From the IMG/VR virus record IMGVR_UViG_3300028392_002123: a stretch of 64,000 nucleotides of DNA. The stretch is one strand, 5' to 3'. Numbering within the stretch: the stretch's first letter is position 1; each line of letters opens with the position of its first letter. Origin of the DNA: a virus. Lineage: Duplodnaviria > Caudoviricetes. The position numbers and the translations under genes were made by a program. Below, piece by piece: positions 5,144 through 57,637 of the stretch. A model generated the notes under the pieces. It did no database searches. It saw only the letters and a list, made by a program, of their open reading frames with translations, and was not told where the DNA came from.

Positions 5144-5146
5144 ACG

Positions 5147-6397: not shown

Positions 6398-6421
6398 GCA
6401 TATATTTAGCCGCAGATTTAA

Positions 6422-12499: not shown

Positions 12500-12871
12500 T
12501 TAGCGAGCGCCAAAATCTTCGGGGCGATGAGCAGAACTGCTCGTGTCAAAACTTTCGCCAAACATTGTATCATCGGGTTTTTCCGGAGCAACTGCTAGGA
12601 TACCTTCGGGATCAATTTTTTGGAATTTGAATACTTTGCCATTGTCGTCTTTGATTTCAATGGTCATAGTCCAGCGGCCGTGTTCGCAGAGAATCCAATC
12701 GTCGGCCTTGACATCTGTGATATCATCTGCTACTTGCCATACTCGACCCCAGCGTGGGCGAATACCTTCTAATTTACCATTATCGTCTTTGAGAATGATA
12801 CCACTTTTGGTAACACGCTCGCCTTGTTCTAGTACAGCAAATATATTGCCTGGTAATGGTTTAATTTTCAT
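12500..12871 (-). CDS. groES: Co-chaperonin GroES-like protein
   Basis: MKIKPLPG...ERVTKSGIIL mobile-loop motif, G.V..V, as in phage Cpn10 homologues. Confidence 0.75.
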   Translation of the reverse strand: MKIKPLPGNIFAVLEQGERVTKSGIILKDDNGKLEGIRPRWGRVWQVADDITDVKADDWILCEHGRWTMTIEIKDDNGKVFKFQKIDPEGILAVAPEKPDDTMFGESFDTSSSAHRPEDFGAR

Positions 12872-13216
12872 TTAAAATTCCTTGTTTGTATTTCTTGCGT
12901 CTAGTTCTGTGAGATATTCTACACTACCGTCGCTGTAAGTAACTTCTGTTCTAGTAATCCCATCAATGCCAACTACTTCTCTGCGTTTTATTTCTGTTTG
13001 AGAAGGATTTAAATTTACTGTTGTTGATGCAGTCATATTAGCATCATGGAACTTATTTGCAATTTCCTGCGCTGTTGCTACAATCTTTCCTCCAGCGCCT
13101 AACATATCACCACGTGCATTTCTAGGTGCGTTGCCCACTGCGGTTGTTGTGCCTCTGGATGCAGAGAATGCCTGCATGTTAAATTCTCTCCCTTTGGCTG
13201 TTCTGTGTTTGCTCAT
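12872..13216 (-). CDS. Hypothetical protein
   Basis: 114 aa, AVGNAPRNARGDMLGAGGKIV segment; operonic. Confidence 0.6.
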   Translation of the reverse strand: MSKHRTAKGREFNMQAFSASRGTTTAVGNAPRNARGDMLGAGGKIVATAQEIANKFHDANMTASTTVNLNPSQTEIKRREVVGIDGITRTEVTYSDGSVEYLTELDARNTNKEF

Positions 13217-13686
13217 TTTAAAAATTCCTTAATGTCTAAATTATATTTAAGACTGTTGACTCTGTGTATGCCCAGCAAATACAAACAATAACTGGCCACA
13301 CTACTGCCTCGTCCGACTCCATAGATAACATCATTTAATATAATAACTTCGCTGAAGTATGCTAAAAATCTTAATAGGTCAAACAAATCTCTTTCTTCGA
13401 ATAATTCTAATTCTTCATTGACCCGATTAACTTGATCTTGATTACTACATTTATCCAGCAAAAATTGTTTTATATCCAAGCTTTTATAAGGCTCGGGTAT
13501 ATTCCAAGATAAGTTATCTTCTGCCAGTGTAAATGGATTAGTCAATTTATTAGACTTACAATTTTTATCAAACTGATTCCACATTGAAATATTACTGGGC
13601 AATATTTTTACTTGCCTTTGTTCTAATAACAATTCCACTAGGTCGTCGTCGCTGACAAAAGCAAATCCCTGTTCATTTAGAAACAT
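13213..13686 (-). CDS. DnaE (Pol III alpha)-like fragment
   Basis: C-terminal YGVGRGSSVASYCLYLLGIHRVNSLKYNLDIKEFLK matches DnaE GRGS..GS.V.Y.LGIT..DP...L.FERFL. Likely start ATG 13686, just after the upstream stop. Confidence 0.75.
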   Translation of the reverse strand: MFLNEQGFAFVSDDDLVELLLEQRQVKILPSNISMWNQFDKNCKSNKLTNPFTLAEDNLSWNIPEPYKSLDIKQFLLDKCSNQDQVNRVNEELELFEERDLFDLLRFLAYFSEVIILNDVIYGVGRGSSVASYCLYLLGIHRVNSLKYNLDIKEFLK

Positions 13687-13687
13687 A

Positions 13688-13909
13688 TTATCCGATGCTA
13701 ATGAAGTTGTCAAATTTATCATCTGGGTTATTTGTATTTTGTACTTGTCTGAGTTCAAATTGAGCAAGACGGCACTCTTCTAACATAAAGTTGAACTGGC
13801 CAAGAATTTGTGGATTTGCGCCAGCTCTTATTGCAACGTTTAGTTTTTTCAAAAGAGTTTTTTCTTGCTCTATTAAAGAATTTAGTTTAGTTTGATATTC
13901 GTCGGCCAT
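13688..13909 (-). CDS. Hypothetical helical protein
   Basis: 73 aa operonic ORF. Confidence 0.55.
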   Translation of the reverse strand: MADEYQTKLNSLIEQEKTLLKKLNVAIRAGANPQILGQFNFMLEECRLAQFELRQVQNTNNPDDKFDNFISIG

Positions 13910-14236
13910 TTAAAAATTCACGCTTAATCCACAACCGCAGGATCCTTTTATGTTGGGATTAACAATAGTTAACTTACTGTTAAGTCCATCTTTTTGCATA
14001 ACTATCATACTTGCAAACATCTTATCTGCTGTGGATTTATTCAAGTATAACATATTGTCCTGCGTAAGTCTAATACTAAATTCACCAGTTTCTTCGTCTG
14101 TGGTAGTCCATCGATATTCATAACCATTACAGCCGCCATCAACTAGCTCTAAGTGAACGTGTTTCTTCCCGTCATTTTTGATCATGTCAGAAATATACTT
14201 TGCGGCCGCTGTGGTTACTTCAATAGGATGAATCAT
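13910..14236 (-). CDS. sufA: A-type Fe-S carrier (SufA/IscA, HesB family)
   Basis: GGCNGYEY and terminal CGCGLS motifs. Confidence 0.85.
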   Translation of the reverse strand: MIHPIEVTTAAAKYISDMIKNDGKKHVHLELVDGGCNGYEYRWTTTDEETGEFSIRLTQDNMLYLNKSTADKMFASMIVMQKDGLNSKLTIVNPNIKGSCGCGLSVNF

Positions 14237-14541
14237 GATTTTAATAGAACTTTGATTAAATCTGCTTTAACTGCACGAGCCTTAACTTCAAGTCCACGCT
14301 CTTGTGCCAGTGCCAATAATTCAGCTTTGGTTTTCTTTTCCAAATCTGCTTTCTTAAAACTAGGTTTAACTTCTAGTACAGTTGTTGTAACCGCTTCTGC
14401 TTTTTCAACAGGAAGAACTACAGGTACATCTGCAACGGCTGTTGGAACAACAGCAACTTCAACTTTATACGGTGCTTCTGGAGCCGTAGGTGTTTCAGCG
14501 GTCTTCGCGCCAAATATCCATGTCATCATTTTCTTGATCAT
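14233..14541 (-). CDS. Small protein with a C-terminal HeH/Rho-N-like helical motif
   Basis: KADLEKKTKAELLALAQERGLEVKARAVKADLIKVL after a low-complexity linker. Confidence 0.55.
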   Translation of the reverse strand: MIKKMMTWIFGAKTAETPTAPEAPYKVEVAVVPTAVADVPVVLPVEKAEAVTTTVLEVKPSFKKADLEKKTKAELLALAQERGLEVKARAVKADLIKVLLKS

Positions 14542-14860
14542 AATTATAAATTCCCATTTCTAGTCTAGATTCTTCGCTGATCCTGTCCGGTGTCCAAGCA
14601 GGATCAAAGACTACATCTAATGATGTTGTTCTACTTGTATTTAACATCGTACAAGCATTTTCTACCTGCAGCCGTACTTCAGCGGGTATTTCTTCAGCAC
14701 TTGGACAGAAAGCACTGGTCAATGTCATTATAATTTTAACGTCGGTGTCGGTTACTGTTAACTCGTAAAACAGTCCCAAGTCCCATATATTAACTGGAAT
14801 TTCAGGATCGTGAACTGTTTTTATATTTTCAATAATTTGTTCTCGGAGTTGATCATTCAT
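14495..14860 (-). CDS. sufT: DUF59 Fe-S assembly protein (SufT/PaaD-like)
   Basis: VHDPEIPVNIWDLGL, MTLTSAFCPSA, VVFDPAWTPDRISEE.RL.MG. Confidence 0.88.
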   Translation of the reverse strand: MNDQLREQIIENIKTVHDPEIPVNIWDLGLFYELTVTDTDVKIIMTLTSAFCPSAEEIPAEVRLQVENACTMLNTSRTTSLDVVFDPAWTPDRISEESRLEMGIYNYDQENDDMDIWREDR

Positions 14861-15264
14861 AGTGTTTTCATTTTCTCCAGGAGATTGGCTACTCCGTTTT
14901 GTCTACCCATGGACAGCAATGGTGCTAGTCCAATCTGTTCCAGTGATTTGATGCTAAAGCTTTGTCTTTGATTATTGTCTGCTTGATTATACCAATCGCA
15001 GATCATCGACGCAATACCTTGTACGATTAAACTTTCCCCGTAGCAGTAAAAATTATTATCTATACGCTCTAGCCATAGGTTACTAGTACATCCTTTAACC
15101 AAATTAGATTCTAGTAATTCCACTTGGAACGCAGGCCTAGCTATTGCTCCATATTCAATGATCCAATCATATTTGTCCAGTGATTCTTCTAGGTCGAATA
15201 AATCACTAAACATGTCTCGAAAGTCTAGCATAGATTCCTCCCAGTTTATCGAATACTGTTTCAA
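14857..15264 (-). CDS. sufE: SufE-like sulfur acceptor
   Basis: NLVKGCTSNLW (conserved Cys), GESLIVQGI, LSMGRQNG. The true start is probably a downstream ATG. Confidence 0.75.
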   Translation of the reverse strand: MKQYSINWEESMLDFRDMFSDLFDLEESLDKYDWIIEYGAIARPAFQVELLESNLVKGCTSNLWLERIDNNFYCYGESLIVQGIASMICDWYNQADNNQRQSFSIKSLEQIGLAPLLSMGRQNGVANLLEKMKTL

Positions 15265-16393
15265 TTTCCGAATATGTAGTATAACATGCCCAACTAATTC
15301 TCAACATGCCAGTTGTACCCAGGGCAGTTAATAATGGCTGAGCACATAATTTACCACTGCGAACCATTATATTGCTAGCATCCAGCATCATGGCATAATC
15401 CTCTACTTGACCAAATTTAGGTATTAAACTAATTAGGCCACTGTCACATTGTGATGTTGCAATAAACTGCTCCGATGATATATGATCATTAACAAATGAT
15501 GCCATGGTACGATCGTGTGATTCTATTTCTGTTTGATTGGCCATTAACCAATCGATTAATTTAGGCAAGGTATATATGGCCGCAAGATTTTGTGTGCCAC
15601 TTTCAAATCTAGAAGCATCCTGAGTCCATGTAGCACCAGTATTGCTGACATTAAGTACAGAGCCGCCACCCGGATGCACAGGCGGATACAACTTCCATAT
15701 AGGATCAATTAATAATGTACCTAATCCTGTGGGCCCATATATTTTATGCCACGACCATGCAACAAAATCAAAGCCATTATAGTCGATGTTACGTTTGCTG
15801 ATAATTTGTGCGGCATCGATTACAGTTGTGCAGGCATAGGTATGTGCTATTTTTTTAATTCTATCCAAGTCATTGACTTTGCCTAATACATTGCTGACAG
15901 CACTGACTGCAATAATTTTACAACCTGCAGAATCTTGTTTGACCTGTTGTTCTAATGCGTCTAAATCTAGTAGTCCAGTGGGATCTAAGTTAATGTCAAT
16001 GATATTCCATCGTCCGGCATCCAGAGCCAATTGTCTAAAAGGTAATGTCAAACTATGGTGACTGTCGATTCCTAGATAGATATTACCACCTATCATGGCA
16101 TTATTAATTAGTTGCACAGCATCATATAAACCTTGACTGGTACCGCTGTTGAAAACAACACGATCACAGGGATCTTTTATGCCCAGCCATTCGCCTATTC
16201 GAATTTTAGATTTAGAATATTCCAAGTCTATTAGTGTACCCATACTGTGTCCACTACGATGAGCATTGGATTTAAATTCCAACATAAAATCTCGCTGATC
16301 ATCTGCAACGGAATAATATGTTTGACTAGTGGCCGCAGAATCCAAATATACTATGTCTGGTCTGCGTTTAAAAAATGGAAAATTTTCACGCAT
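15206..16393 (-). CDS. sufS: Cysteine desulfurase, SufS family
   Basis: YLDSAATSQ, IDAAQ, SWHKIYGPTGLG (PLP Lys), RFESGTQN, VRSGKLCAQPL (catalytic Cys). Confidence 0.9.
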   Translation of the reverse strand: MRENFPFFKRRPDIVYLDSAATSQTYYSVADDQRDFMLEFKSNAHRSGHSMGTLIDLEYSKSKIRIGEWLGIKDPCDRVVFNSGTSQGLYDAVQLINNAMIGGNIYLGIDSHHSLTLPFRQLALDAGRWNIIDINLDPTGLLDLDALEQQVKQDSAGCKIIAVSAVSNVLGKVNDLDRIKKIAHTYACTTVIDAAQIISKRNIDYNGFDFVAWSWHKIYGPTGLGTLLIDPIWKLYPPVHPGGGSVLNVSNTGATWTQDASRFESGTQNLAAIYTLPKLIDWLMANQTEIESHDRTMASFVNDHISSEQFIATSQCDSGLISLIPKFGQVEDYAMMLDASNIMVRSGKLCAQPLLTALGTTGMLRISWACYTTYSEIETVFDKLGGIYARLSRHV

Positions 16394-16847
16394 TATCTAA
16401 TAAACTCTGTTTAATCATTTCTTTGTAATCAACAATACCTCTACTGCTGAGGTAATACTTATCTTCTGCTTTTAGTGTTCCTAGTGCATTGCCATGTGTT
16501 GCAATGATATTACTGTTGGCAATAAACATTTCTGGCCTTGCTTTGATAACACTTTTGTCAAAGGGCCAACTGCGAATTTGAATGTCAGTTTCAACCCCTT
16601 CTACATCCTTGGGTACTATTAAATTACAAACACAGTCCACTGAAGCTTTATTTTCTGCAAATACATATATTTTTATTTTGCTTTTACTAAAGGGCAGTGG
16701 ATCTATTTTGATATTAGCTGTACACGATCCTTTAGTCTGAATAATATAAATGTCAATGGTCTGTAACTTTTCCGTGGAAAAGGTAGTAAAATGCATGTCG
16801 ATATTTTCCATGTCTTCGCAGACACGTTTAACGTTTAATAGACCCAT
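16386..16847 (-). CDS. sufD: Short SufD-like protein
   Basis: C-terminal ATHGNALGTLKAEDKYYLSSRGI matches SufD/SufB C-terminus; position between sufC and sufS; only 153 aa. Confidence 0.65.
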   Translation of the reverse strand: MGLLNVKRVCEDMENIDMHFTTFSTEKLQTIDIYIIQTKGSCTANIKIDPLPFSKSKIKIYVFAENKASVDCVCNLIVPKDVEGVETDIQIRSWPFDKSVIKARPEMFIANSNIIATHGNALGTLKAEDKYYLSSRGIVDYKEMIKQSLLDNA

Positions 16848-17490
16848 TGCTTAATTCTATTTGATTACTGCTGTATAAATCTTGTAGTTCTTTGTCATGT
16901 GTTACTAATAACACACAGCCGTTATTTCTAATTTCTGTGACTAAATTAATAATTTTTTCTCTACTAGATTGTTCTAGGCCAGAATCTGGTTCATCTAGTA
17001 AAAGAACCTTGATACCATTTTTAAGTAATACTACCTGTGCTAACTCGTTTTTCTTACGTTCGCCGCCGCTGGCACCGTCATTGAACGGCCGCTTCTCCCA
17101 GCCTGCGGGCAGGCCAATCCAATTGAATATTGATTTAGTAATTTTAATTAATTCACTGGTGCTACCTGCTACGTTTTGAGATTTTTGTATTTCTTTAAAC
17201 AGAGTCATGGTATTAACACCATTTATAGTCGGAGGCGCTTGATGAGACATAAAAACTCCACCACGGCTTCTTTCATAGCAGGGCAAGTCCAACAATTCTT
17301 TGTCTCCTAGTTGAATACTGCCTGTGGCTGTAATGTCTGGTCTTCCCATGATGGTGTGCAACAATGTACTTTTTCCACTGCCGTTTGATCCTGTGATTAG
17401 CAGACATTCTCCGTAATTTACAGTCACGGATAGATTGGAAATAATTTCCTTGTCTCCAATTTTAGCTGACAGATTTTTTATTGTTAACAT
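16828..17490 (-). CDS. sufC: SufC ABC-type ATPase
   Basis: GSNGSGKSTL, IMGRP, RSRGGVFMSHQAP, ASGGERKKNE, LLLDEPDSGL. Confidence 0.9.
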   Translation of the reverse strand: MLTIKNLSAKIGDKEIISNLSVTVNYGECLLITGSNGSGKSTLLHTIMGRPDITATGSIQLGDKELLDLPCYERSRGGVFMSHQAPPTINGVNTMTLFKEIQKSQNVAGSTSELIKITKSIFNWIGLPAGWEKRPFNDGASGGERKKNELAQVVLLKNGIKVLLLDEPDSGLEQSSREKIINLVTEIRNNGCVLLVTHDKELQDLYSSNQIELSNGSIKR

Positions 17491-17716
17491 TAATTTTATT
17501 TTCTTCTAGTACAGGCGCAATTCTTTCCAACTCTTCTGGGTGAGCATAACGCACTTCTTTCATACCCGACCAACTATCTTCGGTGAAAACTCTCACGGGT
17601 TTCCAATATTTGTGTACAATATTATTCACTATAACTATAGCAATAACAAACACAATAAAGCCCAAGGCTGTTAGTATACTTCCGGCTAAAAATACTGCCG
17701 CTTGATCCATATCCAT
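17462..17716 (-). CDS. Small single-pass membrane protein inserted between sufB and sufC
   Basis: Hydrophobic N-terminal stretch; overlaps both neighbours. Confidence 0.55.
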   Translation of the reverse strand: MDMDQAAVFLAGSILTALGFIVFVIAIVIVNNIVHKYWKPVRVFTEDSWSGMKEVRYAHPEELERIAPVLEENKINVNNKKSVS

Positions 17717-19131
17717 TATCCAATACTCCCTTCCATTGTTACTGATAATAATTTATTTGCCTCGGCCGCAAACTCCAAAGGCAATGTGTTCAACACACTA
17801 CGACAAAATCCACTAACGATTGCACCTGCGGCGCTTTCTGGATCCAGTCCTCTTGACGTCAAGTAATATAACTCTTCGTCACTGACACGGCCTGTTGTGG
17901 CTTCATGTTCTACTTGAGCAGTTTCATTTCTACAATCTGTATAAGGGATTGTATTTGATCTGCTATTATTTCCAATCATCAAACTGTCGCATTGTGTAAA
18001 ATTACGAGCATTTTTAGCGCCGGGAGTCATACGAACCAGACCTCTATATGTCATCGTGCTATTACCCAAGCTGATACCTTTACTGATAATTTTACTACGA
18101 GTGTTGGCGCCAATGTGAATCATTTTTGTACCAGTGTCAGCCTGTTGTCTACCACGAGTGACAGCCACTGAGTAGAACTCACCTGTTGACCCATCACCCT
18201 GAAGGACGCAACTGGGGTACTTCCAGGTAATGGCTGATCCTGTTTCCACCTGAGTCCAACTAACTCTGCTTTTGGCTCCACGACATTGGGCACGTTTGGT
18301 GACAAAGTTGTAGACTCCGCCGATACCGTGCTCATCTCCTGGGTACCAGTTTTGTACAGTTGAATATTTAATCTCTGCCCTGTCAAGGGCAACAAGTTCG
18401 ACCACTGCGGCATGTAACTGATTCTCGTCACGTTGGGGTGCTGTACATCCTTCCAAGTAAGATACATAACTGTCCTTGTCTGCTATAATTAAGGTGCGTT
18501 CAAATTGACCGCTACCAGCACTATTAATTCTAAAGTAAGTGCTCAACTCTAATGGGCATCGTTTGCCTTCTGGAATATAAACAAAACTGCCATCACTGAA
18601 TACTGCCGAGTTAATACAGGCAAACCAGTTATCGCCCTGAGGTATAACTGAGCCTACATATTGTCGTACTAGATCAGGATGATGTTGTACTGCTTCGTTA
18701 AAACTACAAAAGATAATGCCTTCTTCTGCTAGTTTCTCTTTGTATGTTGTGCCAATACTAACGCTGTCAAAGACTGCATCAACAGCAACACCTGCTAACT
18801 TGGCACGTTCTTTTAAAGGGATACCCAACTTTTCAAAGTCATCCAGAATTTCCTGTGGTACTTCATCGAGACTTTTAAATTGTTTCTTAGGTCGACTGTG
18901 ATAGTAAATGTTGTCGTAGTCCGGGCGTGTGTACTTTAACTCGGCCCAGTCAGGCTCAGTCATTGTAGATAGTTTGGCTAGTGCATTAAGCCTGAATTCA
19001 AGTAGCCATTCGGGTTCATTGTTTTTAGCACTGATTATACGAACAGTATGCTCGTTCAAACCTTTACCGATTAATTCGGTGTCAACATTAGTAACCCACC
19101 CTGCCAAATATTCGTGTTCTAGTTCATTCAT
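17716..19131 (-). CDS. sufB: Fe-S cluster scaffold SufB
   Basis: [78 protein letters not shown]. Likely start ATG 19131. Confidence 0.96.
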
Positions 19132-19331
19132 TGTTTTATTATATCGAATATGTTGCCATATTCGTATCTTGTCCAATCATCCATATCTACATAAGTGTTA
19201 ATACACCTACGATATATTTTCTTTAACCATACTCGTTCGCCGCTGACAGTTTTAACTGGCCTCCAAGCAAACCAAATATCCCAGGGCATAACTTCTATTT
19301 TTCTAGCAACATTGCCTATAGGATCAAACAA
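19128..19331 (-). CDS. Hypothetical protein
   Basis: 67 aa Trp-rich operonic ORF. Confidence 0.55.
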
Positions 19332-19661
19332 TTATTGCCACCTTAACATAAACATCATCTTATCTTCTTGACTATCAAACTCAAGAAGCATGCCGATTAG
19401 TTTACATTGTACACTACTTATAGCACACCAGTCAAATATATTTTGCTCATTATCAATCCAAAATTTTGGATCGCAGATTAACAGCAAAGGTTTTTGACCT
19501 AAATTAGCATGTGCGTCAACAAATTTTATGCCCTGATCTTTTAACATTTTATGTGCAATATCGGCATGCTTGAGTACTTTGACAAATCTGTCGCCCTGCG
19601 CTTCTTCTACCCAAATCTCCCAACACAATTTACTAGAATTAAAATAAGCATAGGGGTTCAA
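19332..19661 (-). CDS. Hypothetical protein
   Basis: 109 aa operonic ORF ending in F.LRW-type motif. Confidence 0.55.
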   Translation of the reverse strand: MNPYAYFNSSKLCWEIWVEEAQGDRFVKVLKHADIAHKMLKDQGIKFVDAHANLGQKPLLLICDPKFWIDNEQNIFDWCAISSVQCKLIGMLLEFDSQEDKMMFMLRWQ

Positions 19662-19662
19662 G

Positions 19663-19902
19663 TTAGCCCCATTTTAATTTATAAACAAAAGCATCTTGAT
19701 CTGTTAGCTTGGCTCGAATAGCGTATCTGTATCCGTAGGCCATATGATCAATAGATTGATGGTAAACAGGTGTTTCTACAGCGTGTTCCATCACCCATTT
19801 ACCAGCATCACTGTTTTGCCAATCCCACAAAGGTTGGGCCGCATAGATTTCCGGATCTTCTACGTCACCAACCATAAATGTATGGACAGTTATCACTAAC
19901 AT
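19663..19902 (-). CDS. Hypothetical protein
   Basis: 79 aa operonic ORF (GDVEDPEIYAAQPLWDW). Confidence 0.6.
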   Translation of the reverse strand: MLVITVHTFMVGDVEDPEIYAAQPLWDWQNSDAGKWVMEHAVETPVYHQSIDHMAYGYRYAIRAKLTDQDAFVYKLKWG

Positions 19903-20222
19903 TATTTAAAAATAATCAAAGCCATCAAACAGGCCTGGATAAAAAATCCAAATCCAATGGTAACAATGTTTAAGATATCTTTTTGAATTGTTGATTTAAC
20001 AAAAAATAAAAACAATCCCGACCATGCCAGTAATACTAAATCCACAGGCGGCGTCTTTTCAGTTAGTCCTGTTAAGATTGCCATCAAGGTAGGTATAGTA
20101 GCAAGGTGTAATAAGATTACTGCAATCCATCCTGTGGTCTCTGCACTAATTTTAGTAAAATGTTCTGTGAATGTTGTTTGAATAGAATTCAAAATTTCAT
20201 TGAGATCAAATTTAAATTTCAT
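19902..20222 (-). CDS. Hypothetical membrane protein
   Basis: Three hydrophobic segments. Confidence 0.6.
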   Translation of the reverse strand: MKFKFDLNEILNSIQTTFTEHFTKISAETTGWIAVILLHLATIPTLMAILTGLTEKTPPVDLVLLAWSGLFLFFVKSTIQKDILNIVTIGFGFFIQACLMALIIFK

Positions 20223-20827
20223 TTTTGCTTTCCTTTATTAGGTTTCGTTTCTGTTGCTACAACTACTACCTGTTTAGTATAGTTGCTGGGATTATCACTG
20301 TAAAAAATATGAGCACCTACTTTGGCCACACGTTCTTTGTTCCATTGAGGATTTACATATTCAGCATGATAATACATGGCATTTTGCAAACTAGGTAATC
20401 TAAATCCTTCTAGTAAAACCTTTTTTGCCGCTTCCATACTTTGATCATATGCTTCTTTATTTTTTGGTTTTATCCCGGCCTTGCCTTCGCAATACCAACT
20501 AAATTGACAAAGGACTTTGTCGTAGACTATGTTTTTTTGATAAACCACTTTGCAAATGTCACCGGGAAACTTGCCACTCTCGGCTCGATTCAGCGTTACT
20601 TGTGCAACAGCGGCCTTACCTTCAAAAGGCTCATAACCAGCTTCGTGGTATATGTTTTGTGCCAAACAGTCTAATTGCTTTTCTCTCACTCCAGCAGTTA
20701 TACTAGTTGGCCTCATTTTTTCAGCAGTACGTAAATTGTTCATCTTATACTCATAGGTAAAATTGATGATCCAACATACTAGGATCAATCCTAGCAATCC
20801 TGCTATTAGTTTCATGATGCGTATCAT
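20219..20827 (-). CDS. Cell-wall hydrolase, SleB/Hydrolase_2 family
   Basis: CLAQNIYHEAG.E...GKAAVAQVTLNR, IC.VVYQ, CQFSW, YYHA.YV.P.W, GAHIFY; N-terminal anchor. Confidence 0.88.
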   Translation of the reverse strand: MIRIMKLIAGLLGLILVCWIINFTYEYKMNNLRTAEKMRPTSITAGVREKQLDCLAQNIYHEAGYEPFEGKAAVAQVTLNRAESGKFPGDICKVVYQKNIVYDKVLCQFSWYCEGKAGIKPKNKEAYDQSMEAAKKVLLEGFRLPSLQNAMYYHAEYVNPQWNKERVAKVGAHIFYSDNPSNYTKQVVVVATETKPNKGKQK

Positions 20828-20897
20828 AGTTTTAAACCTCCTTTACGCAGTTATATATAATAGGCGATTAACACTTTTGCACCTAGGCAAAAGTACT

Positions 20898-20926
20898 ATT
20901 ATAACAGCCTATTTGTAGAAAGTCAA
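20898..20926 (-). promoter_or_regulatory. sigma70 promoter TTGACT-N17-TATAAT
   Basis: Read directly upstream of the SleB-like gene. Confidence 0.75.
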
Positions 20927-20936
20927 TTAAAACGGT

Positions 20937-22988
20937 TTACTTGCTAGTAGCACGGTAAACTCCGTCCCAATCTTTTGGTAAATCAACTGACTTCATTTCT
21001 TTGCAACGCTCTATCCAATTTTCATAATAATGGTTCATTTGTCCGTCAAATTCTTCCATTAGGTTGTTGCAAAGTTCGATAGCCGCATCGAATCGTTGTG
21101 TTCGATACTCAGACAACATTGCATTGTGAGTTTCTCTGGCTATTAGATAACCTGGCATCGCGCCGGCATCTGTTATCAACACGGTGTGTATATTAACTCC
21201 TTCTTTCTTGCCTTTAACGGCAATACAATCTAATTCTAAAGTAAAGAATTCATCCTTTACATATTCAGCAGTTTTCGTACCAAGTACGATTCGTACACCG
21301 TACGGTTTACTCTGGCCCTCCAGTCTGGAAGCCAAATTAACACCGTCACCGAGGCAAGTATAGTCAAAACGCTGATCACTTCCCATATTACCCACCACAA
21401 CAGTATCACTATTAATTCCAAGACCCATACCAAAAGCTGGTATGCCTTCTGCTGTAACTTCTCGATTAAATTCATCCAAACTCTCCAACATCTGCAGGCC
21501 TGTGCGTACTGCATCTTTAGCATGGTTGCCATTGTCTAATGGTGCATTCCAAAATGCCATTTGTGCATCGCCTATATATTTGTCTAATGTACCTTTATTT
21601 TCTAAAATCTTTTTTGTCATAGCAGTCATATAACGATTCATAATTTTAGTAAGTCCTTGTACATCCTTGCCATAGTGTTCACTAATTGTGGTAAAGCCAC
21701 GAACATCAGTGAACATAATACTTAGCTCTCTACTCTCGCCGCCCAGCTTTAATAACTCAGGCTGACGTTGTAGTTGTGCTACAAGATCTGGACTTAGGTA
21801 AGTTCCAAACTGTTTTTTAATCTGTTGTTTTTGTAAAAACTCACTTACAAACTTGACCCCGTAAGCATGTAAAGCAACCAAAATAATGCCGCTGACCAAC
21901 AAAGTGGAATCAAGAAGATAAAGATAATTTGAATAAGCAAACTTACTGCCGACAATAGAAAGAGCAACAATAGCAACAGTACTAGCAAGTCCAAGATAAG
22001 TCCACCTTGTTAAAAATAATAAAATAATACCCGCTATTAATATAGCAATTATTTCTGCGCCATCTGCCCAGTCGGGTCTTTGTATTATAACACCGTTGGC
22101 CAAAGTTGCTATAACCGCGGCCTGCACATGATGCGGAAATACCGCACCTATGCTCGTTGGCAAAGGATTACTAATGCCTGCGGCTGTTGGTCCTACTACA
22201 ACAATGGCACCACCAAAGTCTTTGGGCAAATCAGTCAATGACACAGATTTACTTTGCTGACTCCAATCAATCCATACGCGGCCTAAATTGTCTGTGGCTA
22301 TAGGACCAAACTTTGGAATACGCATTTTTTCAACACCACCTTCAAATAGCTTGACTTGAAAAGTAGAATCCCCAGCGGCAACACGCAACGTCTCTAGGCT
22401 TAATCCTGGGTATAACTTTTCGTTGACAGCAACCACCAGGGGTACACGACGATTAACACCATCTACTTCCGGTAATGTGTTTACTATGCCCACACCTGCG
22501 GCATTATTTTCTAATTGCGGTATGTTGGCAATCAATCCAGGATATGTGACTATTTGATCCAACCATTCGGGATTTAATACAGCACTACCTGGCACACGTG
22601 GATTATTTTTATTTTTAGAATTAGGTATACTGACTAAGACAACAGGATAGTTTTTAAGTATGGCGCCAAGATCCCTATCTCCACCAGTACGATCAGGCTC
22701 AGCCATAAGCACATTGAGAACAACAAGGCCAGCGTTGCGATGATACAGGTCTTCAATAATTTCAGCATAGTTAACCCTCGGTAACGGCCATTGGCCTAAT
22801 TTATCCAGTGCCGCTTCATCTATATTCACTGTATAGATATTGTTTTCTGTTTGTGTTTTTCCAGCGATCAATGTATCGAAATAACGCAGTCTTACACTTT
22901 CAACAAATGTAGGATCTGCGATTCTTATACCTAACACCAGCACAAGGGTTATTAGTGCTGTCCACGGACTTAGCAATATTTTTTTCAT
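20937..22988 (-). CDS. CHASE2-domain class III adenylate cyclase
   Basis: N-terminal TM, CHASE2-like region (VNIDEAALDKLGQWPLPR), three TMs, cyclase motifs FTDVRGFT, LDKYIGDA, GINSD.VVVGNMGS..RFDYT.LGDGVNLASRLEG. Confidence 0.93.
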   Translation of the reverse strand: MKKILLSPWTALITLVLVLGIRIADPTFVESVRLRYFDTLIAGKTQTENNIYTVNIDEAALDKLGQWPLPRVNYAEIIEDLYHRNAGLVVLNVLMAEPDRTGGDRDLGAILKNYPVVLVSIPNSKNKNNPRVPGSAVLNPEWLDQIVTYPGLIANIPQLENNAAGVGIVNTLPEVDGVNRRVPLVVAVNEKLYPGLSLETLRVAAGDSTFQVKLFEGGVEKMRIPKFGPIATDNLGRVWIDWSQQSKSVSLTDLPKDFGGAIVVVGPTAAGISNPLPTSIGAVFPHHVQAAVIATLANGVIIQRPDWADGAEIIAILIAGIILLFLTRWTYLGLASTVAIVALSIVGSKFAYSNYLYLLDSTLLVSGIILVALHAYGVKFVSEFLQKQQIKKQFGTYLSPDLVAQLQRQPELLKLGGESRELSIMFTDVRGFTTISEHYGKDVQGLTKIMNRYMTAMTKKILENKGTLDKYIGDAQMAFWNAPLDNGNHAKDAVRTGLQMLESLDEFNREVTAEGIPAFGMGLGINSDTVVVGNMGSDQRFDYTCLGDGVNLASRLEGQSKPYGVRIVLGTKTAEYVKDEFFTLELDCIAVKGKKEGVNIHTVLITDAGAMPGYLIARETHNAMLSEYRTQRFDAAIELCNNLMEEFDGQMNHYYENWIERCKEMKSVDLPKDWDGVYRATSK

Positions 22989-42679: not shown

Positions 42680-42688
42680 GTATGCTAT

Positions 42689-43258: not shown

Positions 43259-43267
43259 TTTTATTCC

Positions 43268-53341: not shown

Positions 53342-53972
53342 ATCACTGAACTTGCCGGCCAACCCTATAATAGATTGGTCCGCACTAAAATCTAAATTGC
53401 CAAGAAATGTGGTCATGAGCAATAAAAACTTTGCCGGCAGTTTTTCATTGCTGGACATCAATAAACATCTAACCACAGAAGTTTTAGATACACTTGGCCA
53501 TGCAGGAATTACAGTAACACATTTAGTTGTTTTTTCCAATGGCAAATCTAGGACCAATGATGTAGAAAGAATGATACACAGCGATGTTAAATGGGATAGA
53601 GAAGATAATTCTTGGAAAAGTATACATTGCGGAATTAACTGGGAATTAGAAGGCACAAATTTATGGAAATGGTGGGACATGACTGCATACCCTGCTGTCT
53701 ACCCCACAGGCCCAATGACTCCGGAAAATCATATACTGCATGGCATACACTATGAACGTAGAGGAAGGTCCGGAGTACATCCAAATGCTAGATTAATCGA
53801 ACAGGCTTATATACCCGGTCCTAGTTTGGTACGCACAGATGTGCCGCACAGCACTATATTTGGCAAGGAAGGCTATACTCCCAGAGCAGGTATTAGTCTA
53901 CGAATAGATGAAACTAATATTTCATCCTGGGAAGATGCTGTAGAATTGTTTAAACCTTTGATCAAAGAATGA
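53328..53972 (+). CDS. 2OG-Fe(II) oxygenase-like protein, tandem paralog
   Basis: IHSD...GINW...WW...VRTDVPH...RAGISLRI. Confidence 0.6.
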   Translation: MSYHKSLNLPANPIIDWSALKSKLPRNVVMSNKNFAGSFSLLDINKHLTTEVLDTLGHAGITVTHLVVFSNGKSRTNDVERMIHSDVKWDREDNSWKSIHCGINWELEGTNLWKWWDMTAYPAVYPTGPMTPENHILHGIHYERRGRSGVHPNARLIEQAYIPGPSLVRTDVPHSTIFGKEGYTPRAGISLRIDETNISSWEDAVELFKPLIKE

Positions 53973-55453
53973 ATGTAATTTTAGTCAATGGCATCTATGA
54001 CTTGATGCCCAGTAGAAGTCTTGGTCCTTACTTGCTAAGACATGTGTTAGCCAAGAATGGCTATACCTGTCAAGTAATCGATCACTGTCAGGAATTCACA
54101 GCCGACGAACTCTACGCTACTATCAAACACTTTATCACCAAGGACACAGTATGCTTGGGATTCAGTACTACATTCTGGCGCGACATAGAACGTAAGATAT
54201 GGAACAACAATGGCGGCATGCCGCCTAACTTAGACACAGCCAGTCGTAGAATTAAACAGGAATATCCCCATATTAAACTAGTGCTAGGTGGTGCAGGCAT
54301 ACGCAATGTGGGTGCCAAGGTGGATCACGTTGACGCACTGGTAGTGGGTGAAGCCGAAGACCTGTTCATTGAACTCTTAGATCACTGGACCAAAGGCACA
54401 GCAGAACCTCCACGTAAAACAAATACAACAGTGAACAAGCCCTACTACAATCAATGTATAAACAAAGATTATGATGTCAGTACCTGCGACTTTATGTGGA
54501 GTTTCAGCGACGCAATTCTGCCCGGAGAACCCCTGCCCTTGGAAACAGCCAGGGGTTGTATTTTTAAGTGCAAGTTTTGTAGTTATCCGCACTTGGGTAA
54601 AAAGAAAATGGACTACTTAAAACCCATAGAACACATACGCGAACACATGATGCACAACTATGAACGTTGGGGTACACGACACTATATCATGCTGGATGAC
54701 ACATTCAATGACAGTGAACACAAGATAGACACACTCTTGGACATGACTCGTCGATTGCCTTTTAAAATAGGCTATGTTGCTTATATTAGAGCTGACTTGG
54801 TGCATAGATTCAAAGGACAGGCGGAAAAGCTACAGGAGTCCGGACTTGAAAGCTGTTTCTTTGGACTTGAAAGTCTACACCCCCAGGCCAGTCAAGCAGT
54901 GGGCAAGGGCTGGAGTGGTCGACATGCCAGAGAATATATACCGCATTTACTGCACGACATATGGCAGGATAAGGTCAATGTGACCACAGGCTTTATTGCA
55001 GGCCTACCCGGAGAAGACGCTGACAGTTTGCTGGACACACTTAAATGGGTCAATGACAATGGCATCATGACATTCTGGTTGGGCTTGGGTATCAGCAGTC
55101 CTGCCAGCTTGGCCGCAGGCAGCATGGATGGTGTGGCCTTTTACAGTGAGTTTGAACGTAACGCTGACAAATACGGCTATAAATTTGACAGCAAAGGTTG
55201 GTGGTACAATGATCTATGGACACATCATACTGCGGAAAAGTTTGCCATGGAACGGCTTAACTATTATAGAAAACTTAAACGTATTAGCTGTTGGTTCCAT
55301 ATTCAGCTACGTGCCTTTGGCTACACAGACGACGAACTATGGGCCATTGCCGGCAGTCAACTCACACACAATGGCTTTTTAACAGATCAGACATTTCTGG
55401 ACCGCAGAGACAAATACGTGGCTGACTATAAGAAATTGTTGTTGACACTATAA
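53969..55453 (+). CDS. B12-binding-domain radical SAM protein
   Basis: N-terminal cobalamin-binding-like domain (LGFSTTF, LVLGG, VGEAE); ETARGCIFKCKFC (CxxxCxxC); DDTFND; FGLESL. Confidence 0.88.
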   Translation: MNVILVNGIYDLMPSRSLGPYLLRHVLAKNGYTCQVIDHCQEFTADELYATIKHFITKDTVCLGFSTTFWRDIERKIWNNNGGMPPNLDTASRRIKQEYPHIKLVLGGAGIRNVGAKVDHVDALVVGEAEDLFIELLDHWTKGTAEPPRKTNTTVNKPYYNQCINKDYDVSTCDFMWSFSDAILPGEPLPLETARGCIFKCKFCSYPHLGKKKMDYLKPIEHIREHMMHNYERWGTRHYIMLDDTFNDSEHKIDTLLDMTRRLPFKIGYVAYIRADLVHRFKGQAEKLQESGLESCFFGLESLHPQASQAVGKGWSGRHAREYIPHLLHDIWQDKVNVTTGFIAGLPGEDADSLLDTLKWVNDNGIMTFWLGLGISSPASLAAGSMDGVAFYSEFERNADKYGYKFDSKGWWYNDLWTHHTAEKFAMERLNYYRKLKRISCWFHIQLRAFGYTDDELWAIAGSQLTHNGFLTDQTFLDRRDKYVADYKKLLLTL

Positions 55454-56158
55454 CAAGCCCCTGCGCTGATATAAAGTTTCTAGACTACAGTCCAGGGCCA
55501 AGGCCACAACCAGTCTAAATCCCGGGCGATCAATGTCCAAACAATGAGCACAGTCTGTGCGTAAAAATGCGGCACAGTGGTTCTTATATAAACCATGTTT
55601 TGTTGTTGTAGGTTGGCCTAGGTACTGCCATTTTTCTAGATAGTCCCTGCCCTTGATGGCCAAGTATTGATAATTCCGCACACCTAGATTTTCATGATCC
55701 TGTATGCCCACCAAGGGATGACCAGGCACAACATTTTCCCACCAATGCATGGGATCATCAGGATCATATTCAATGACCACATTAAAGCGTGTTAGCACTG
55801 GCAGTCTGCGTAAAGGGTCCACTTCATCCCATTTATATCCATCAATATGCGGATATCCTGGCTGAGCTTTATTGGCATTATTGCTGAGGAACACGTCGGG
55901 CCCACAGAGTTCACTGCCCACATAATTTCTTTCAATGCCCCAGGTCGCCAAATAGTCACGTAGTTCTTCCAGGGCCCGACTGCCCTGCCATATTATTTTC
56001 TTATTAAAGAATTTGTGTTCTGCGTCTACAGTAGCGTATTTGTCATAGGCAATATACTTGTTGACAAAAGGATAATAATAAATTTGTTTAATCCATTCCA
56101 CTGCTTCAGCACTAAATTTAAAATCGCTGTGGTGATAACAATAATTTAATTCGCTCAT
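55448..56158 (-). CDS. 2OG-Fe(II) oxygenase-like protein
   Basis: PHIDG...RFN...MHWW...LRTDCAH...R. Confidence 0.55.
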   Translation of the reverse strand: MSELNYCYHHSDFKFSAEAVEWIKQIYYYPFVNKYIAYDKYATVDAEHKFFNKKIIWQGSRALEELRDYLATWGIERNYVGSELCGPDVFLSNNANKAQPGYPHIDGYKWDEVDPLRRLPVLTRFNVVIEYDPDDPMHWWENVVPGHPLVGIQDHENLGVRNYQYLAIKGRDYLEKWQYLGQPTTTKHGLYKNHCAAFLRTDCAHCLDIDRPGFRLVVALALDCSLETLYQRRGLL

Positions 56159-56188
56159 AGTCGTATTTATTATTCATAAATATTCATT

Positions 56189-57637
56189 ATGCACGTCATA
56201 TTTTTAAACAGTATATACACACAAATTCCGCAAAGAAGTCTTGGTCCGTATTTGCTCAAACATCAATTAGCCAAGAATAATTATCAAAGTCAAGTCATTG
56301 ATTTTTGTCAAGACTGGCATGCTGATCAAATTTTACTGCTATTTAAAAAATTTGCCACAGACAAAACTCTGTGTTTGGCACTGAGCAGTACATTTTGGTT
56401 TGACGAAACACAGACTTATTATACCTATGACAACGGAATTCCGCCCAACATTTATCAAGCCGTTAAATTAATTAAACAACAGTTTCCCCAGGTTAAAATC
56501 GTTTTGGGCGGAGCGCACAGTAGTTATATGCGTTATAGAATAGAAGACGTGGACTGTGTGTTCATTGGAGAAAGCGAAGACACACTGGTAGAAGTGTTGG
56601 ACCATTGGTGCCGGGCCGGCCAAGAACCTGTCAGTGAAATTAATCCCGCCACAGGCAAATTAACATACAGAGATCCAAGGAATAAAAAATATCAAATACA
56701 GACCTGTGATTTTATGTGGCAGGAAGAAGACTGTATTATCAACAAAGAAGCTCTGCCCATGGAAACTGCTAGAGGCTGTATATTTAAATGTAGTTTTTGC
56801 GCTTATCCGCACTTGGGTAAAAAGAAATTCGATTATTTAAAACCCAATGATGCCATTAAAAATTATTTAATTAACAATTATAATCGTTGGCAGACCACTA
56901 GTTATATCATCTTAGATGACACTTTCAATGACAGCGAATATAAAATAGATGGATTTTTAGATATTACTAAAAGCCTGCCTTTTAGCATAGAATACGCGGC
57001 CTATATTAGAGCAGACTTGGTCTATAGGTTTGAAGGCATGGCAGACAAGCTGGCAGAAACAGGCCTGCGTGGAGCTTTCTTTGGCATTGAAAGCCTGCAC
57101 CCCCGGGCCAGTCAGATTGTGGGCAAAGGCTGGAGCGGTAGACATGCTCGTGAGTTTGTGCCCAGACTGGTACATGACACGTGGCAGAATAAGATCACTG
57201 CACATTGTGGATTAATTGTGGGACTGCCCGGAGAAACTCGTGAAGATTTAACTACAAGTTTAACCTGGGCCAATGACAACATGATCAATGTTATTTTCTT
57301 TGGCCTGCAGGTCACTAATAACTTACACGAGCGTAGCTATATCAGTGAATTCGAGCGTAACGCTGACAAATATGGATTTAAATTTGACGAGCATGGAAAA
57401 TGGTATAATGACACGTGGACAAGAAATTCTGTTTTAGAATTCAGCGCACAATTAAATCCTCAGCGCAGGCGCATGAATTATTCGGGATTTAATCACGTGG
57501 CCCTGCACACACTGGGCTATACCAATGAAGAAATAATGAACACACACCAGGATCTACTAGTGCGTAACAGTGAGGAATTTCGTCAGCGTAAACAACAATT
57601 CCTCAGGGCCTATTGGAATAAAATTATCAATTTATAA
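56189..57637 (+). CDS. B12-binding-domain radical SAM protein, paralog
   Basis: ETARGCIFKCSFC; same architecture as 53969-55453. Confidence 0.88.
   Translation: MHVIFLNSIYTQIPQRSLGPYLLKHQLAKNNYQSQVIDFCQDWHADQILLLFKKFATDKTLCLALSSTFWFDETQTYYTYDNGIPPNIYQAVKLIKQQFPQVKIVLGGAHSSYMRYRIEDVDCVFIGESEDTLVEVLDHWCRAGQEPVSEINPATGKLTYRDPRNKKYQIQTCDFMWQEEDCIINKEALPMETARGCIFKCSFCAYPHLGKKKFDYLKPNDAIKNYLINNYNRWQTTSYIILDDTFNDSEYKIDGFLDITKSLPFSIEYAAYIRADLVYRFEGMADKLAETGLRGAFFGIESLHPRASQIVGKGWSGRHAREFVPRLVHDTWQNKITAHCGLIVGLPGETREDLTTSLTWANDNMINVIFFGLQVTNNLHERSYISEFERNADKYGFKFDEHGKWYNDTWTRNSVLEFSAQLNPQRRRMNYSGFNHVALHTLGYTNEEIMNTHQDLLVRNSEEFRQRKQQFLRAYWNKIINL

Follow-up and report, generated by a model that had tools for sequence, protein, structure and literature searches.

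In an uncultured freshwater giant phage, a gene cluster for SUF-type iron–sulfur (Fe-S) cluster assembly occupies positions 13910-19131 of the minus strand (Table 1). The window, that is, the whole 64,000-nt stretch of DNA analysed, is part of a 141.7-kb IMG/VR virus record classed as 'linear', with a CheckV completeness of 41%. Besides families with no known members outside phages, the window encodes a clamp loader, a tail fibre protein and nine tRNAs. On the minus strand, the genes run in the order sufB, a small membrane ORF (orf84), sufC, sufD, sufS, sufE, sufT, orf102 and sufA, with neighbouring ends either abutting or overlapping by 1-59 nt. This agrees with an initial annotation, made from the sequence, of a full SUF set on one strand with overlapping or abutting ends: all seven genes are in place, each with a family match (7/7). 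No gene for an iron donor or reductant was identified within the cluster.

Table 1 Features of the SUF locus and candidate client genes in the window
Feature	Coordinates	Strand	Description
orf67	19128..19331	-	Small ORF; stop overlaps sufB start (ATGA-type coupling)
sufB	17716..19131	-	471 aa scaffold subunit; NCBIfam PRK11814 810.6 bits (cut-off 717)
orf84	17462..17716	-	Small protein in variable sufB/sufC slot; one predicted TM helix; no family match
sufC	16828..17490	-	220 aa ABC-type ATPase; TIGR01978 E=6.8e-46, 156.6 bits (under 212.8 cut-off)
mini-sufD	16386..16847	-	153 aa; Pfam SUFBD_core 29.5 bits (cut-off 27)
sufS	15206..16393	-	395 aa type II cysteine desulfurase; TIGR01979 E=3.7e-69
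sufE	14857..15264	-	<=135 aa, sulfur shuttle; Pfam SufE 69.7 bits
sufT (DUF59)	14495..14860	-	121 aa, FCP motif; Pfam FeS_assembly_P 55.2 bits; TIGR02945 E=1.3e-29
orf102	14233..14541	-	Conserved N-terminal motif, Ala/Pro/Val-rich linker, Rho_N/HeH-like C-terminal helix pair
sufA	13910..14236	-	108 aa A-type Fe-S carrier; Pfam Fe-S_biosyn 43.7 bits
Promoter candidate, sigma-70-type	20898..20926	-	TTGACT-17-TATAAT, TG extension, 11/12; consensus match only
Two paralogous B12-binding radical SAM genes	53969..57637 (53969-55453, 56189-57637)	+	Candidate SUF clients

The best promoter candidate sits upstream of the run of co-oriented genes to which the SUF genes belong, in the one intergenic gap of any size there, and no T4-type late box (TATAAATA) was found in 12800-21200. 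In close relatives, sufB and a handful of further SUF genes are matched by contigs from three metatranscriptome libraries; these contigs are short and may reflect DNA carry-over.

Alignment to the E. coli proteins bore out the expectation that key residues are retained. SufB, whose true start, judged by the 471-aa length of its homologs, is the ATG at 19131, matched 5awf_A (E=3e-186) and is identical to E. coli SufB at 12 of 12 mapped functional residues (Y224, R226, N228, C254, Q285, W287, K303, C405, D406, E432, H433 and E434). Its score of 180 bits against SmsB (cut-off 650) indicates that it is not of the minimal-system type. SufC has intact Walker A, Q-loop, signature, Walker B, D-loop and H-loop elements and keeps the equivalents of E. 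coli K40, Q85, E171 and H203, while lacking ~25 C-terminal residues of cellular SufC. In SufS, the PLP-binding Lys217 (E. coli K226), Cys350 (C364) and the equivalents of H123/H124, R359 and R379 are preserved; the residue before the catalytic Cys is Leu in the phage protein, whereas all cellular copies that have the motif carry His there. SufE, with an uncertain start codon given that its longest ORF overlaps sufS by 59 nt, retains Cys59 (E. coli Cys51), SufT its FCP motif and SufA all three Cys ligands (C50, C114 and C116). Indeed, all residues found essential when the E. coli SUF proteins were mapped (Yuda et al. 2017, PMC5571166) are retained. Every SUF gene, mini-sufD included, showed dN/dS values of 0.03-0.25 (unsaturated pairs), with 0.06-0.07 for sufB. 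Five proteins (SufC, SufS, SufE, SufT and mini-SufD) fall below NCBIfam curated cut-offs, so activity does not follow from family membership.

The two small ORFs previously noted among the SUF genes are real. No relative's operon has a counterpart of orf84 at the same position, where a CGFS glutaredoxin or a DUF1289 protein fills the slot instead; a 46%-identical stretch adjoins the clamp loader in a distant relative (record G012 / L146). By contrast, orf102 (Rho_N match at E=0.0027, under the cut-off) is found at the same position in six related operons with 45-53% identity and a dN/dS of about 0.3. It also shares 49% identity with the ORF preceding orf73 in a SUF-less relative, marking it as a backbone gene rather than a SUF-specific one. 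Upstream of sufB, orf67 recurs in five of six close SUF-carrying relatives that include the upstream flank (L003-L007, 76-85% identity; no match in L008), and the SUF-less relative likewise yielded no match; its PHROG matches were to unknown-function families only.

SufD is about one third of the normal size (153 versus 423 aa in E. coli). It lacks the N-terminal helical domain and roughly two thirds of the beta-helix of full SufD, and a short-SufD profile aligned to residues 259-399 of E. coli SufD (2zu0/5awf; E=7e-26). An AF2 model (pLDDT 94.7) superposed all 153 residues on SufD 238-398 (Z 11.1-11.2, rmsd 2.7-2.8) and matched SufB 311-470 at Z 12.6, as compared to Z <=6.1 for unrelated beta-helices. 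On both alignments, mini-SufD spans the final beta-helix turns, with the equivalent of His360, and continues into the C-terminal domain as far as its second helix; in E. coli this domain docks SufC. In the published account, the absent portions are not described as belonging to the contact reported for the E. coli complex. His118 (E. coli H360) is invariant in 29 short-SufD sequences; the C358 equivalent is Ala.

Structure prediction suggests a pairing of mini-SufD and SufB like that seen in the E. coli complex. The predicted complex scored 0.79 (best of three controls, 0.00). Of 80 solved complexes, 58 attained that mark, as did 2 of 110 mismatched pairs; as the like complex 5AWF has been solved, this score reflects likeness to 5AWF and is no proof of binding. 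Three prediction runs agreed in >=97% of contacts, with partner pLDDT >=86, and the predicted interface joins SufB 368-415 to SufD 93-126, taking in Cys381, the EHE motif and His118.

The operon and the phage genes flanking it (a cell-wall hydrolase block on one side, a co-chaperonin and clamp loader on the other) are syntenic in at least seven independent viral contigs from different metagenomes, and the operon stretch recurs in freshwater metagenomes of at least three studies. Two relatives (L004 and L024) carry the T4 Gp23 capsid gene and the operon on a single contig, one of these records being 235 kb long. In one close relative the whole cassette is missing at the same locus, implying that it is accessory and dispensable. 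In quick trees built against 70-80 of the nearest cellular homologs, a single clade gathered 33 of the 37 viral SufBs, and all viral SufC and SufS sequences likewise formed one clade each (SH-aLRT 96-99); the four remaining SufBs (L025, L030, L032, L038) nested among cellular clades. That the viral clades stand apart from the nearest cellular genes argues for an old acquisition rather than a recent capture, supporting the earlier suggestion that the divergent subunits reflect long residence in phages. The subunits have diverged to very different degrees: identity between phage and cellular proteins is 65% for SufB (63-67% to the nearest cellular sequences, best 67%), 33% for SufC, which loses its tail within the viral clade, and 27% for SufS.

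A full pathway was initially proposed to be unusual in phages. A SufB search of the GenBank phage collection returned no record with the phage-type operon; yet this operon is widespread among uncultured jumbo phages. We found no paper describing a phage SUF operon with a miniature SufD. The sole full set in the GenBank search, annotated sufB-sufC-sufD-sufS-iscU in the deposited jumbo phage record of Microcystis phage MaAM05/PhiMa05 (MW495066), consists of full-size cellular-type genes with a SufU/IscU-type partner. Its SufB is only 60% identical to the protein described here. The set is placed at the end of the record, amid panB/panC-like cellular genes, and the cellular-like content of that genome is disputed in the literature (PMC13623530).

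Marine T4-like jumbo phages (L016-L031, L035, L036, L040) also carry full SUF operons. These belong to the same viral SufB, SufC and SufS clades, share the sufB-(slot)-sufC-sufD-sufS-sufT order and reside in radical-SAM-rich genomes, but their SufD is full-length (384-431 aa) and their SufC measures 231-244 aa, whereas the operon of the freshwater clade additionally includes sufE and sufA and has the miniature SufD. Single Fe-S genes (A-type carrier/sufA, iscU, sufE, paaD/DUF59) have been reported from marine viruses (Nishimura 2017, PMC5332604; PMC8940887). These, too, are phage-borne, often in T4-like genomes with many radical SAM enzymes; as lone carriers or shuttles, however, they need a host machine, while here scaffold, ATPase, desulfurase, shuttle and carriers occur together.

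Relative to the cellular E. coli-type system (SufABCDSE; SufBC2D, PDB 5AWF/5AWG/2ZU0; SufBC2D-SufE cryo-EM, PMC13485665), the viral operon encodes the same components, its type II SufS being SufE-dependent, and shares the mapped SufB residues, the SufD His, the predicted SufB-SufD interface and the sufB-C-D-S-E order. Besides the shorter SufD and SufC and the loss of SufD C358, it differs in the SufS motif ('KLC' for 'HHC'), in having sufA last instead of first, in the added sufT and in the absence of the enterobacterial Cys-rich SufB insert.

We propose that the operon is a working, phage-owned SUF pathway, carried as an accessory cassette by an uncultured T4-like jumbo phage lineage and most likely maturing phage Fe-S enzymes, a reading to which we assign a probability of about 75%. 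In such a pathway, SufS would draw on cysteine and hold the sulfur as a Cys350 persulfide before passing it to SufE Cys59, from where SufE would deliver it to SufB Cys229 (E. coli C254). Clusters would be assembled at the SufB/SufD interface on SufB Cys381 and Glu410 and mini-SufD His118 (E. coli C405, E434 and SufD H360), in a cycle driven by two SufC ATPases, and passed to target proteins by SufA and SufT. Mini-SufD may have been trimmed to essentials, namely the SufB-pairing beta-helix turns, the His ligand and the two helices that open the C-terminal domain, the SufC-binding one in E. coli. The loss of SufD Cys358 and the replaced SufS His would count against a working pathway.

The operon might instead mainly sustain host Fe-S metabolism during infection, such as respiration and nucleotide synthesis, rather than load phage enzymes, as expected from the classical view of auxiliary metabolic genes when oxidative stress prevails or iron is scarce. 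Single Fe-S genes (sufA/ATC, iscU, sufE), common in surface-ocean viromes, have been read in this way (PMC5332604; PMC8940887), the comparative closeness of SufB to cellular SufB (65%, versus 33% for SufC) would fit host partners or clients, and the window's own 142-kb record has only three radical SAM matches. However, four of five SUF-carrying records of relatives searched hold 11-23 such matches (the fifth, a 92-kb fragment, none), and the relatives' operons themselves enclose a radical SAM gene, a ferredoxin or a CGFS glutaredoxin. Eight of nine records without a SUF match have 0-2, and record G012 (59% complete) has 11 radical SAM genes and no SUF gene; the link is drawn from fragments and from related, non-independent genomes. 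We regard host maintenance as an unlikely primary role, noting that the two roles are not mutually exclusive.

It is improbable that the short SufD is a functionless, decaying remnant, with the scaffold formed by SufB2C2 or completed by a borrowed host SufD. Its length and its low scores (36.5 bits against NCBIfam SufD, cut-off 222; barely above the Pfam cut-off) would suit decay, and SufB2C2 scaffolds are reported to exist (PMC12584684, PMC12442378). The archaeal SMS (PDB 9H78) is likewise a naturally reduced SUF scaffold, but has a SufB-like homodimer and no SufD, while the phage retains a distinct, trimmed one and its SufB scores far below the SmsB cut-off. Moreover, mini-sufD is under purifying selection (dN/dS 0.04-0.23), and the ORF is intact in 12 of 12 short-SufD relatives (143-156 aa; 11 read directly, plus L006). 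The invariant His, the confident predicted fold and the canonical predicted interface likewise speak against decay. SufD size classes of about 420, 280, 193 and 150 aa occur within the viral clade. Most copies of intermediate size (193 and 276-286 aa) still have the His motif, a pattern that resembles ordered trimming rather than decay. A 148-aa SufD (P0143) also lies beside sufB in a cellular-looking contig (L126). Such short SufDs of small-genome bacteria resemble the phage protein in length, in having SUFBD_core as their sole match and in the retained His motif, but are 22-28% identical to it and stand in a cellular context; they probably represent a parallel reduction.

Many thiolation pathways are reported to be fed by cysteine desulfurases (PMC8300815), and SufS-SufE might mainly supply sulfur for phage DNA or tRNA thio-modification, with Fe-S assembly secondary; we consider this very improbable, as the SufB, SufC and SufD scaffold and the carriers SufA and SufT are co-conserved under selection and no thiouridylase or Dnd-type gene is present in the cluster. 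Finally, there is next to no chance that host DNA was fused to phage DNA by misassembly or misbinning, a concern of the initial annotation that the partial, linear metagenome contig, the four SufB contigs nested among cellular clades and the contested MaAM05 region might revive: the synteny and the Gp23-bearing operon record rule out a chimera, GC is uniform across the region (0.38-0.40), the SUF genes are translationally coupled to phage ORFs at both sides, and even the nearest cellular SufB is only 67% identical.

SUF is the robust Fe-S pathway under oxidative or iron-poor conditions. With this complete, bacterial-type gene set kept under selection, the virus probably makes the Fe-S cofactor itself during infection. 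The need would arise after takeover of host gene expression, possibly under such conditions, and the likely role of the cassette would be to supply the phage's many radical SAM enzymes, a class present in unusually high numbers across this phage group.

The SUF genes constitute a real, old and selection-maintained phage pathway of a new, reduced form, whose activity and clients are predicted. Nine tightly packed genes occupy the minus strand between 13910 and 19131, with neighbours overlapping by 1–59 nt or abutting; the single-strand layout described in the initial annotation, including two interleaved small ORFs (orf84 and orf102), is therefore borne out. A further small ORF, orf67, overlaps the sufB start upstream, and another, orf73, abuts sufA downstream. 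Pfam and NCBIfam models identified all seven SUF genes. For SufC, SufD, SufS, SufE and SufT, the best match was to the right family, yet stayed under the curated NCBIfam cut-offs. While the longest sufB frame opens with a TTG (19176), more than 100 homologs are 471 aa long, so the true start is the ATG at 19131, as initially annotated. The minimal SmsB–SmsC (SMS) system was ruled out as an identity for these genes by the score of phage SufB against the SmsB-type scaffold model NF052511 (180.1 bits; cut-off 650) and by the presence of a SufD-type gene.

Genes and features in and around the SUF operon of the window
Feature	Position	Strand	Assignment
sufB	17716-19131	-	NCBIfam SufB equivalog, 810.6 bits (cut-off 717)
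orf84	17462-17716	-	Single-TM ORF in the sufB–sufC slot
sufC	16828-17490	-	Equivalog score 156.6 (under 212.8 cut-off)
sufD (153 aa)	16386-16847	-	TIGR01981, 36.5 bits (cut-off 222)
sufS	15206-16393	-	TIGR01979, 233.5 bits (under 475.1 cut-off)
sufE	14857-15264	-	Pfam SufE match over cut-off
sufT/DUF59	14495-14860	-	PF01883, 55.2 bits (over 23.5 cut-off)
orf102	14233-14541	-	Phage backbone ORF
sufA	13910-14236	-	Pfam, 43.7 bits (over 26.3 cut-off)
DnaE-like ORF (184 aa)	13213-13767	-	Start of DNA polymerase III alpha NTPase domain only (PF07733 18-94 of 260)
Co-chaperonin gene	12500-12871	-	GroES/gp31-like; Cpn10 E=0.0035, phrog_931 'head morphogenesis' E=3e-10
Promoter candidate	20926-20898	-	Sigma-70-type site
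Nine tRNA genes	42604-51552		Met, Pro, Asn, Val, Ala, Thr, Gly x2, Leu

Pairwise, gene-by-gene alignment to the suf operon of E. coli K-12 revealed the functional residues to be largely in place. Phage SufB is 59% identical to its E. coli counterpart and matches it at all 12 residues mapped as functional by Yuda et al. (Y224, R226, N228, C254, Q285, W287, K303, C405, D406, E432, H433, E434; PMC5571166), with the region of the persulfide acceptor Cys254 and the cluster site Cys405/Glu434 present. In SufC, the Walker A Lys, Q-loop Gln, Walker B Glu, H-loop His, signature and D-loop are all intact. SufS carries the residues of a type II desulfurase, namely the PLP lysine K217 (Lys226 in E. coli) and C350 (Cys364), and also retains H112/H113 (His123/124), R345 (Arg359) and R365 (Arg379). 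SufE C59 corresponds to Cys51, and SufA C36, C100 and C102 to C50, C114 and C116, the C-x(n)-C-x-C pattern of A-type carriers. Together with the DUF59 Cys-Pro motif of SufT, present as 'SAFCP', these alignments agree with the earlier claim that the key residues of SufS, SufE, SufT and SufA are retained. The 153-aa SufD (mini-SufD) keeps the E. coli residue His360 as its His118 and has lost Cys358, whose role is redundant. Separately, the residue preceding the SufS catalytic Cys is a His in 65/65 cellular SufS with a motif match and a Leu, Met or Val in 30/30 viral SufS with a motif match (R-x-G-x-[LMV]-C-A). The non-His residue in the window (within 15340-15360, SufS residues 345-351) is thus a viral-clade signature beside the nucleophile.

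That the pathway belongs to a phage is supported by its surroundings. The IMG/VR record containing the window spans 141,699 bp and is 41% complete according to CheckV, which translates to a genome of roughly 345 kb. Around the operon, GC content is even (0.38–0.40), and the phage encodes a tail fibre, a T4-type clamp loader, several phage-only families and tRNA genes scattered among small ORFs. The T4 Gp23 capsid family was not found in this 142-kb record; it lies on the same contig as SUF genes in two relatives, L004 (235-kb record) and L024 (340-kb record). An IMG/VR scan with SufB returned 41 loci, 12 of which (L003-L012, L043; SufB 75–92% identical) share a sufB-C-D-S-E core in the same order, and the eight closest (L003-L008, L043) add sufT, orf102, sufA and orf73. 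In seven or more contigs, drawn from different samples, the two flanks are alike, one with the cell-wall hydrolase, orf106, orf79 and orf109 and the other with orf73, the DnaE-like fragment, a pair of small genes and the clamp loader. The stretch also turns up in the freshwater metagenomes of three or more studies. A host/phage chimeric assembly, looked for as an explanation of the locus, is excluded for practical purposes by the syntenic flanks, by Gp23 and SUF genes sharing contigs and by this recurrence across studies.

The viral proteins were also compared with cellular ones. Among 185,579 species genomes, the closest SufB proteins are 63–67% identical and scattered over Alpha- and Gammaproteobacteria. 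In quick maximum-likelihood trees, which carry one support measure and a cellular sample picked by SufB similarity, 33/37 viral SufB group in a single clade (SH-aLRT 96), separate from 80 cellular SufB. All 33 viral SufC and all 31 viral SufS likewise form one clade each (SH-aLRT 99 for both), although rapid evolution of viral SufC and SufS could draw their branches together in such trees. These per-gene trees support the long residence in phage proposed at the outset. Divergence of the subunits is strikingly uneven: median phage-to-cell identity is 33–39% for SufC (66% between cells) and 27–35% for SufS (52%), but still 65% for SufB (75%).

The remaining four 'viral' SufB (L025, L030, L032, L038) nest in cellular clades and represent either separate events or misclassified DNA. 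In L038 (IMGVR_UViG_3300020477_000990, 328 kb), SufB is sister to Pelagibacteraceae SufB (SH-aLRT 99) and SufC falls in the viral clade, with sufC and a 192-aa sufD located 4.4 kb from sufB; here, sufB may have been replaced by a host copy, hinting at a SAR11 host. L004 and L005 are near-identical over the operon (dS 0.08–0.34) except in sufE (dS 1.41, dN 0.235), which suggests an allele swap by recombination within the operon.

The most reduced component is SufD. The full three-domain architecture of this protein (N-terminal helical domain, long beta-helix and C-terminal helical domain; ~420 aa) is absent. A single-sequence search of mini-SufD against PDB sequences gave no match and a profile was therefore required. 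An exhaustive search of 1.84 billion representative proteins returned only 54 relatives, many of them 139–220 aa long. A profile of 29 short SufDs, in which His118, Pro105 and Gly137 are invariant, aligned to E. coli SufD 259-399 (E=7e-26) and more weakly to SufB (7e-13). The AlphaFold2 model (pLDDT 94.7) comprises nine beta-strands and two helices; in Foldseek, SufB/SufD chains alone reached a probability of 1.00. With VIA-align, all 153 residues superposed on SufD 238-398 (Z 11.1–11.2, rmsd 2.7–2.8), the only part of SufD covered, and on SufB 311-470 at Z 12.6, with unrelated beta-helices at Z ≤6.1. Profile, model and superposition therefore identify mini-SufD as the C-terminal third of SufD, which takes in the final turns of the beta-helix, the His ligand and helices one and two of the C-terminal domain. 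In E. coli, this C-terminal helical domain is the SufC-binding domain. The parts of SufD that mini-SufD lacks are not implicated in sulfur delivery.

Complex prediction for SufB and mini-SufD scored 0.79 (best of three controls, 0.00), a mark reached by 58/80 solved complexes and 2/110 mismatched pairs; since the E. coli complex is solved, this score may reflect likeness only and is not proof of binding. Runs shared at least 97% of contacts, with partner pLDDT of at least 86. In the prediction, strands of SufB 368-415 pair in antiparallel fashion with strands of SufD 93-126, in a region that includes SufB Cys381, the EHE motif and SufD His118 and coincides with the cluster site that published work places at the two-sheet interface of SufB and SufD (PMC5571166). 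Purifying selection acts on all SUF genes, mini-sufD among them (dN/dS 0.03–0.25 in pairs with unsaturated dS). Short SufDs are not confined to phages: L126 (369-5447), a cellular-looking contig with genes for a seryl-tRNA synthetase and an MFS transporter, encodes a 148-aa SufD after a ferredoxin, 3 kb from sufB, and is an independent case of a miniature SufD.

The SUF cassette is accessory. A close relative (record G008, locus L145), whose clamp loader is 84% identical, keeps both flanks and lacks SUF genes; its entire 142 kb contain no SUFBD match. The interval from orf109 to orf73 is filled instead by ~2.5 kb with about eight small unknown ORFs (C1:48000-64000, 4560-7045). Directly before orf73 lies a homolog of orf102 (49% identity, E=4e-24), which marks orf102 as phage backbone rather than a SUF component; because the SUF-less relative has small ORFs at this place yet keeps the orf102 homolog, the locus is hypervariable. 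Direct repeats flanking the cassette were not found in the window, where only short two-copy families of the kind arising by chance occur. The DnaE-like ORF adjoins the cassette in all relatives, the SUF-less one included, and the co-chaperonin gene sits between cassette and clamp loader. Presence or absence of the cassette in close relatives provides a natural comparison for its fitness value.

Variation extends into the operon, above all to the slot between sufB and sufC. Its occupant in the window, orf84, has no counterpart in the relatives' operons, and the sole relative detected adjoins the clamp loader of a distant record (G012). Elsewhere, the slot holds a CGFS monothiol glutaredoxin (L004, 9449-9754; L009, 9407-9715), a DUF1289 protein (L024, 9422-9679) or a 263-aa unknown protein (L008, 9470-10261), or is empty (L006, L007, L015). 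The window's own record yielded no homolog of the CGFS glutaredoxin. Two more distant relatives have insertions in the SUF operon: L014 (12131-14322) has gained genes for an RpiB-type isomerase, a glutaredoxin and a ferredoxin that carries DUF3470, and L015 (12243-13280) a radical SAM gene.

What might the machine supply? The window encodes two B12-binding radical SAM proteins (53969-57637). Radical SAM matches numbered 17, 15, 11 and 23 in four of five searched SUF-carrying records of relatives and 0 in the fifth, a 92-kb fragment; nine related records without a SUFBD match had 0–2 in eight cases and 11 in one. This comparison is only suggestive of a link with SUF, and because the records are fragments and not independent of one another, we go no further than to infer that the SUF machine feeds phage-encoded Fe-S enzymes. 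Nishimura et al. (PMC5332604) had pointed out a similar link in the case of single carrier genes. As for expression, the sigma-70-type site (table) is the leading promoter candidate for the gene run. With nine occurrences in the window against 7.4 expected, the late-promoter box TATAAATA is not enriched, and the operon contains none. Three metatranscriptome libraries yielded short contigs that map to sufB and a small number of further SUF genes in close relatives, weakly suggesting that the relatives' genes are transcribed; RNA from the window phage's own operon was found in no run.

With respect to precedents, the literature searched, the coverage of which is incomplete, reported neither a complete SUF operon in a phage nor a miniature SufD, and described single viral Fe-S genes only (PMC5332604, PMC8940887). 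PHROGs includes SufB-like and SufS-like families labelled 'unknown function'. Among GenBank phages, a DNA-level search gave only two weak sufB matches, and a protein-level SufB search found a full SUF set only in Microcystis phage MaAM05. Other 'phage' SufB records in GenBank proved to be prophage or host flanks, or unannotated fragments. In MaAM05, sufB-sufC-sufD-sufS-iscU stand at the end of the genome record (MW495066.1 258786-273876), and panB, panC and pxpA-like cellular genes come before them; unlike the window's reduced set, these SUF genes are of full length and cellular type, and their partner is IscU/SufU. The cellular-like content of the MaAM05 genome is the subject of a published dispute. 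A full SUF pathway is thus unusual among GenBank phages, as first supposed, but less so in IMG/VR, given the 12 loci with the shared core. Particular to the present case are the freshwater clade, the joining of sufE and sufA to the operon, the pairing of mini-SufD with a shortened SufC, and the presence/absence polymorphism of the cassette.

SufD of the viral clade falls into size classes: 384–431 aa with a SufC of 231–244 aa (a 16-member, probably marine clade), 276–286 aa (L022, L033), 193–194 aa (L014, L015, L039), and 143–156 aa with a SufC of 217–220 aa (the clade of the window). In the quick tree, which resolved no branching order among them, the three shortened classes cluster (SH-aLRT 93); the shortening may thus plausibly have been stepwise. 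Taking these data together, we propose, at somewhat less than even odds (roughly 0.4), a natural deletion series (SufD of ~420, 280, 193 and 150 aa, with the SufC tail removed) leading to a minimal, virus-owned SufB-SufC2-miniSufD machine dedicated to loading phage radical SAM enzymes after host shut-off. If true, SufD would need no more than its final beta-helix turns, His360 and the C-terminal helices next to them. Graded shortening under selection would then map the indispensable parts of a poorly understood subunit, and the 153-aa SufD offers a small, tractable partner for studying structure and mechanism at the SufB–SufD cluster site. Phage Fe-S genes have so far been described as single helpers of the host machine; a virus owning desulfurase, shuttle, scaffold, ATPase and carriers shifts the limit of phage self-supply, and makes it easier to see how jumbo phages can sustain dozens of tailoring enzymes that depend on Fe-S clusters.
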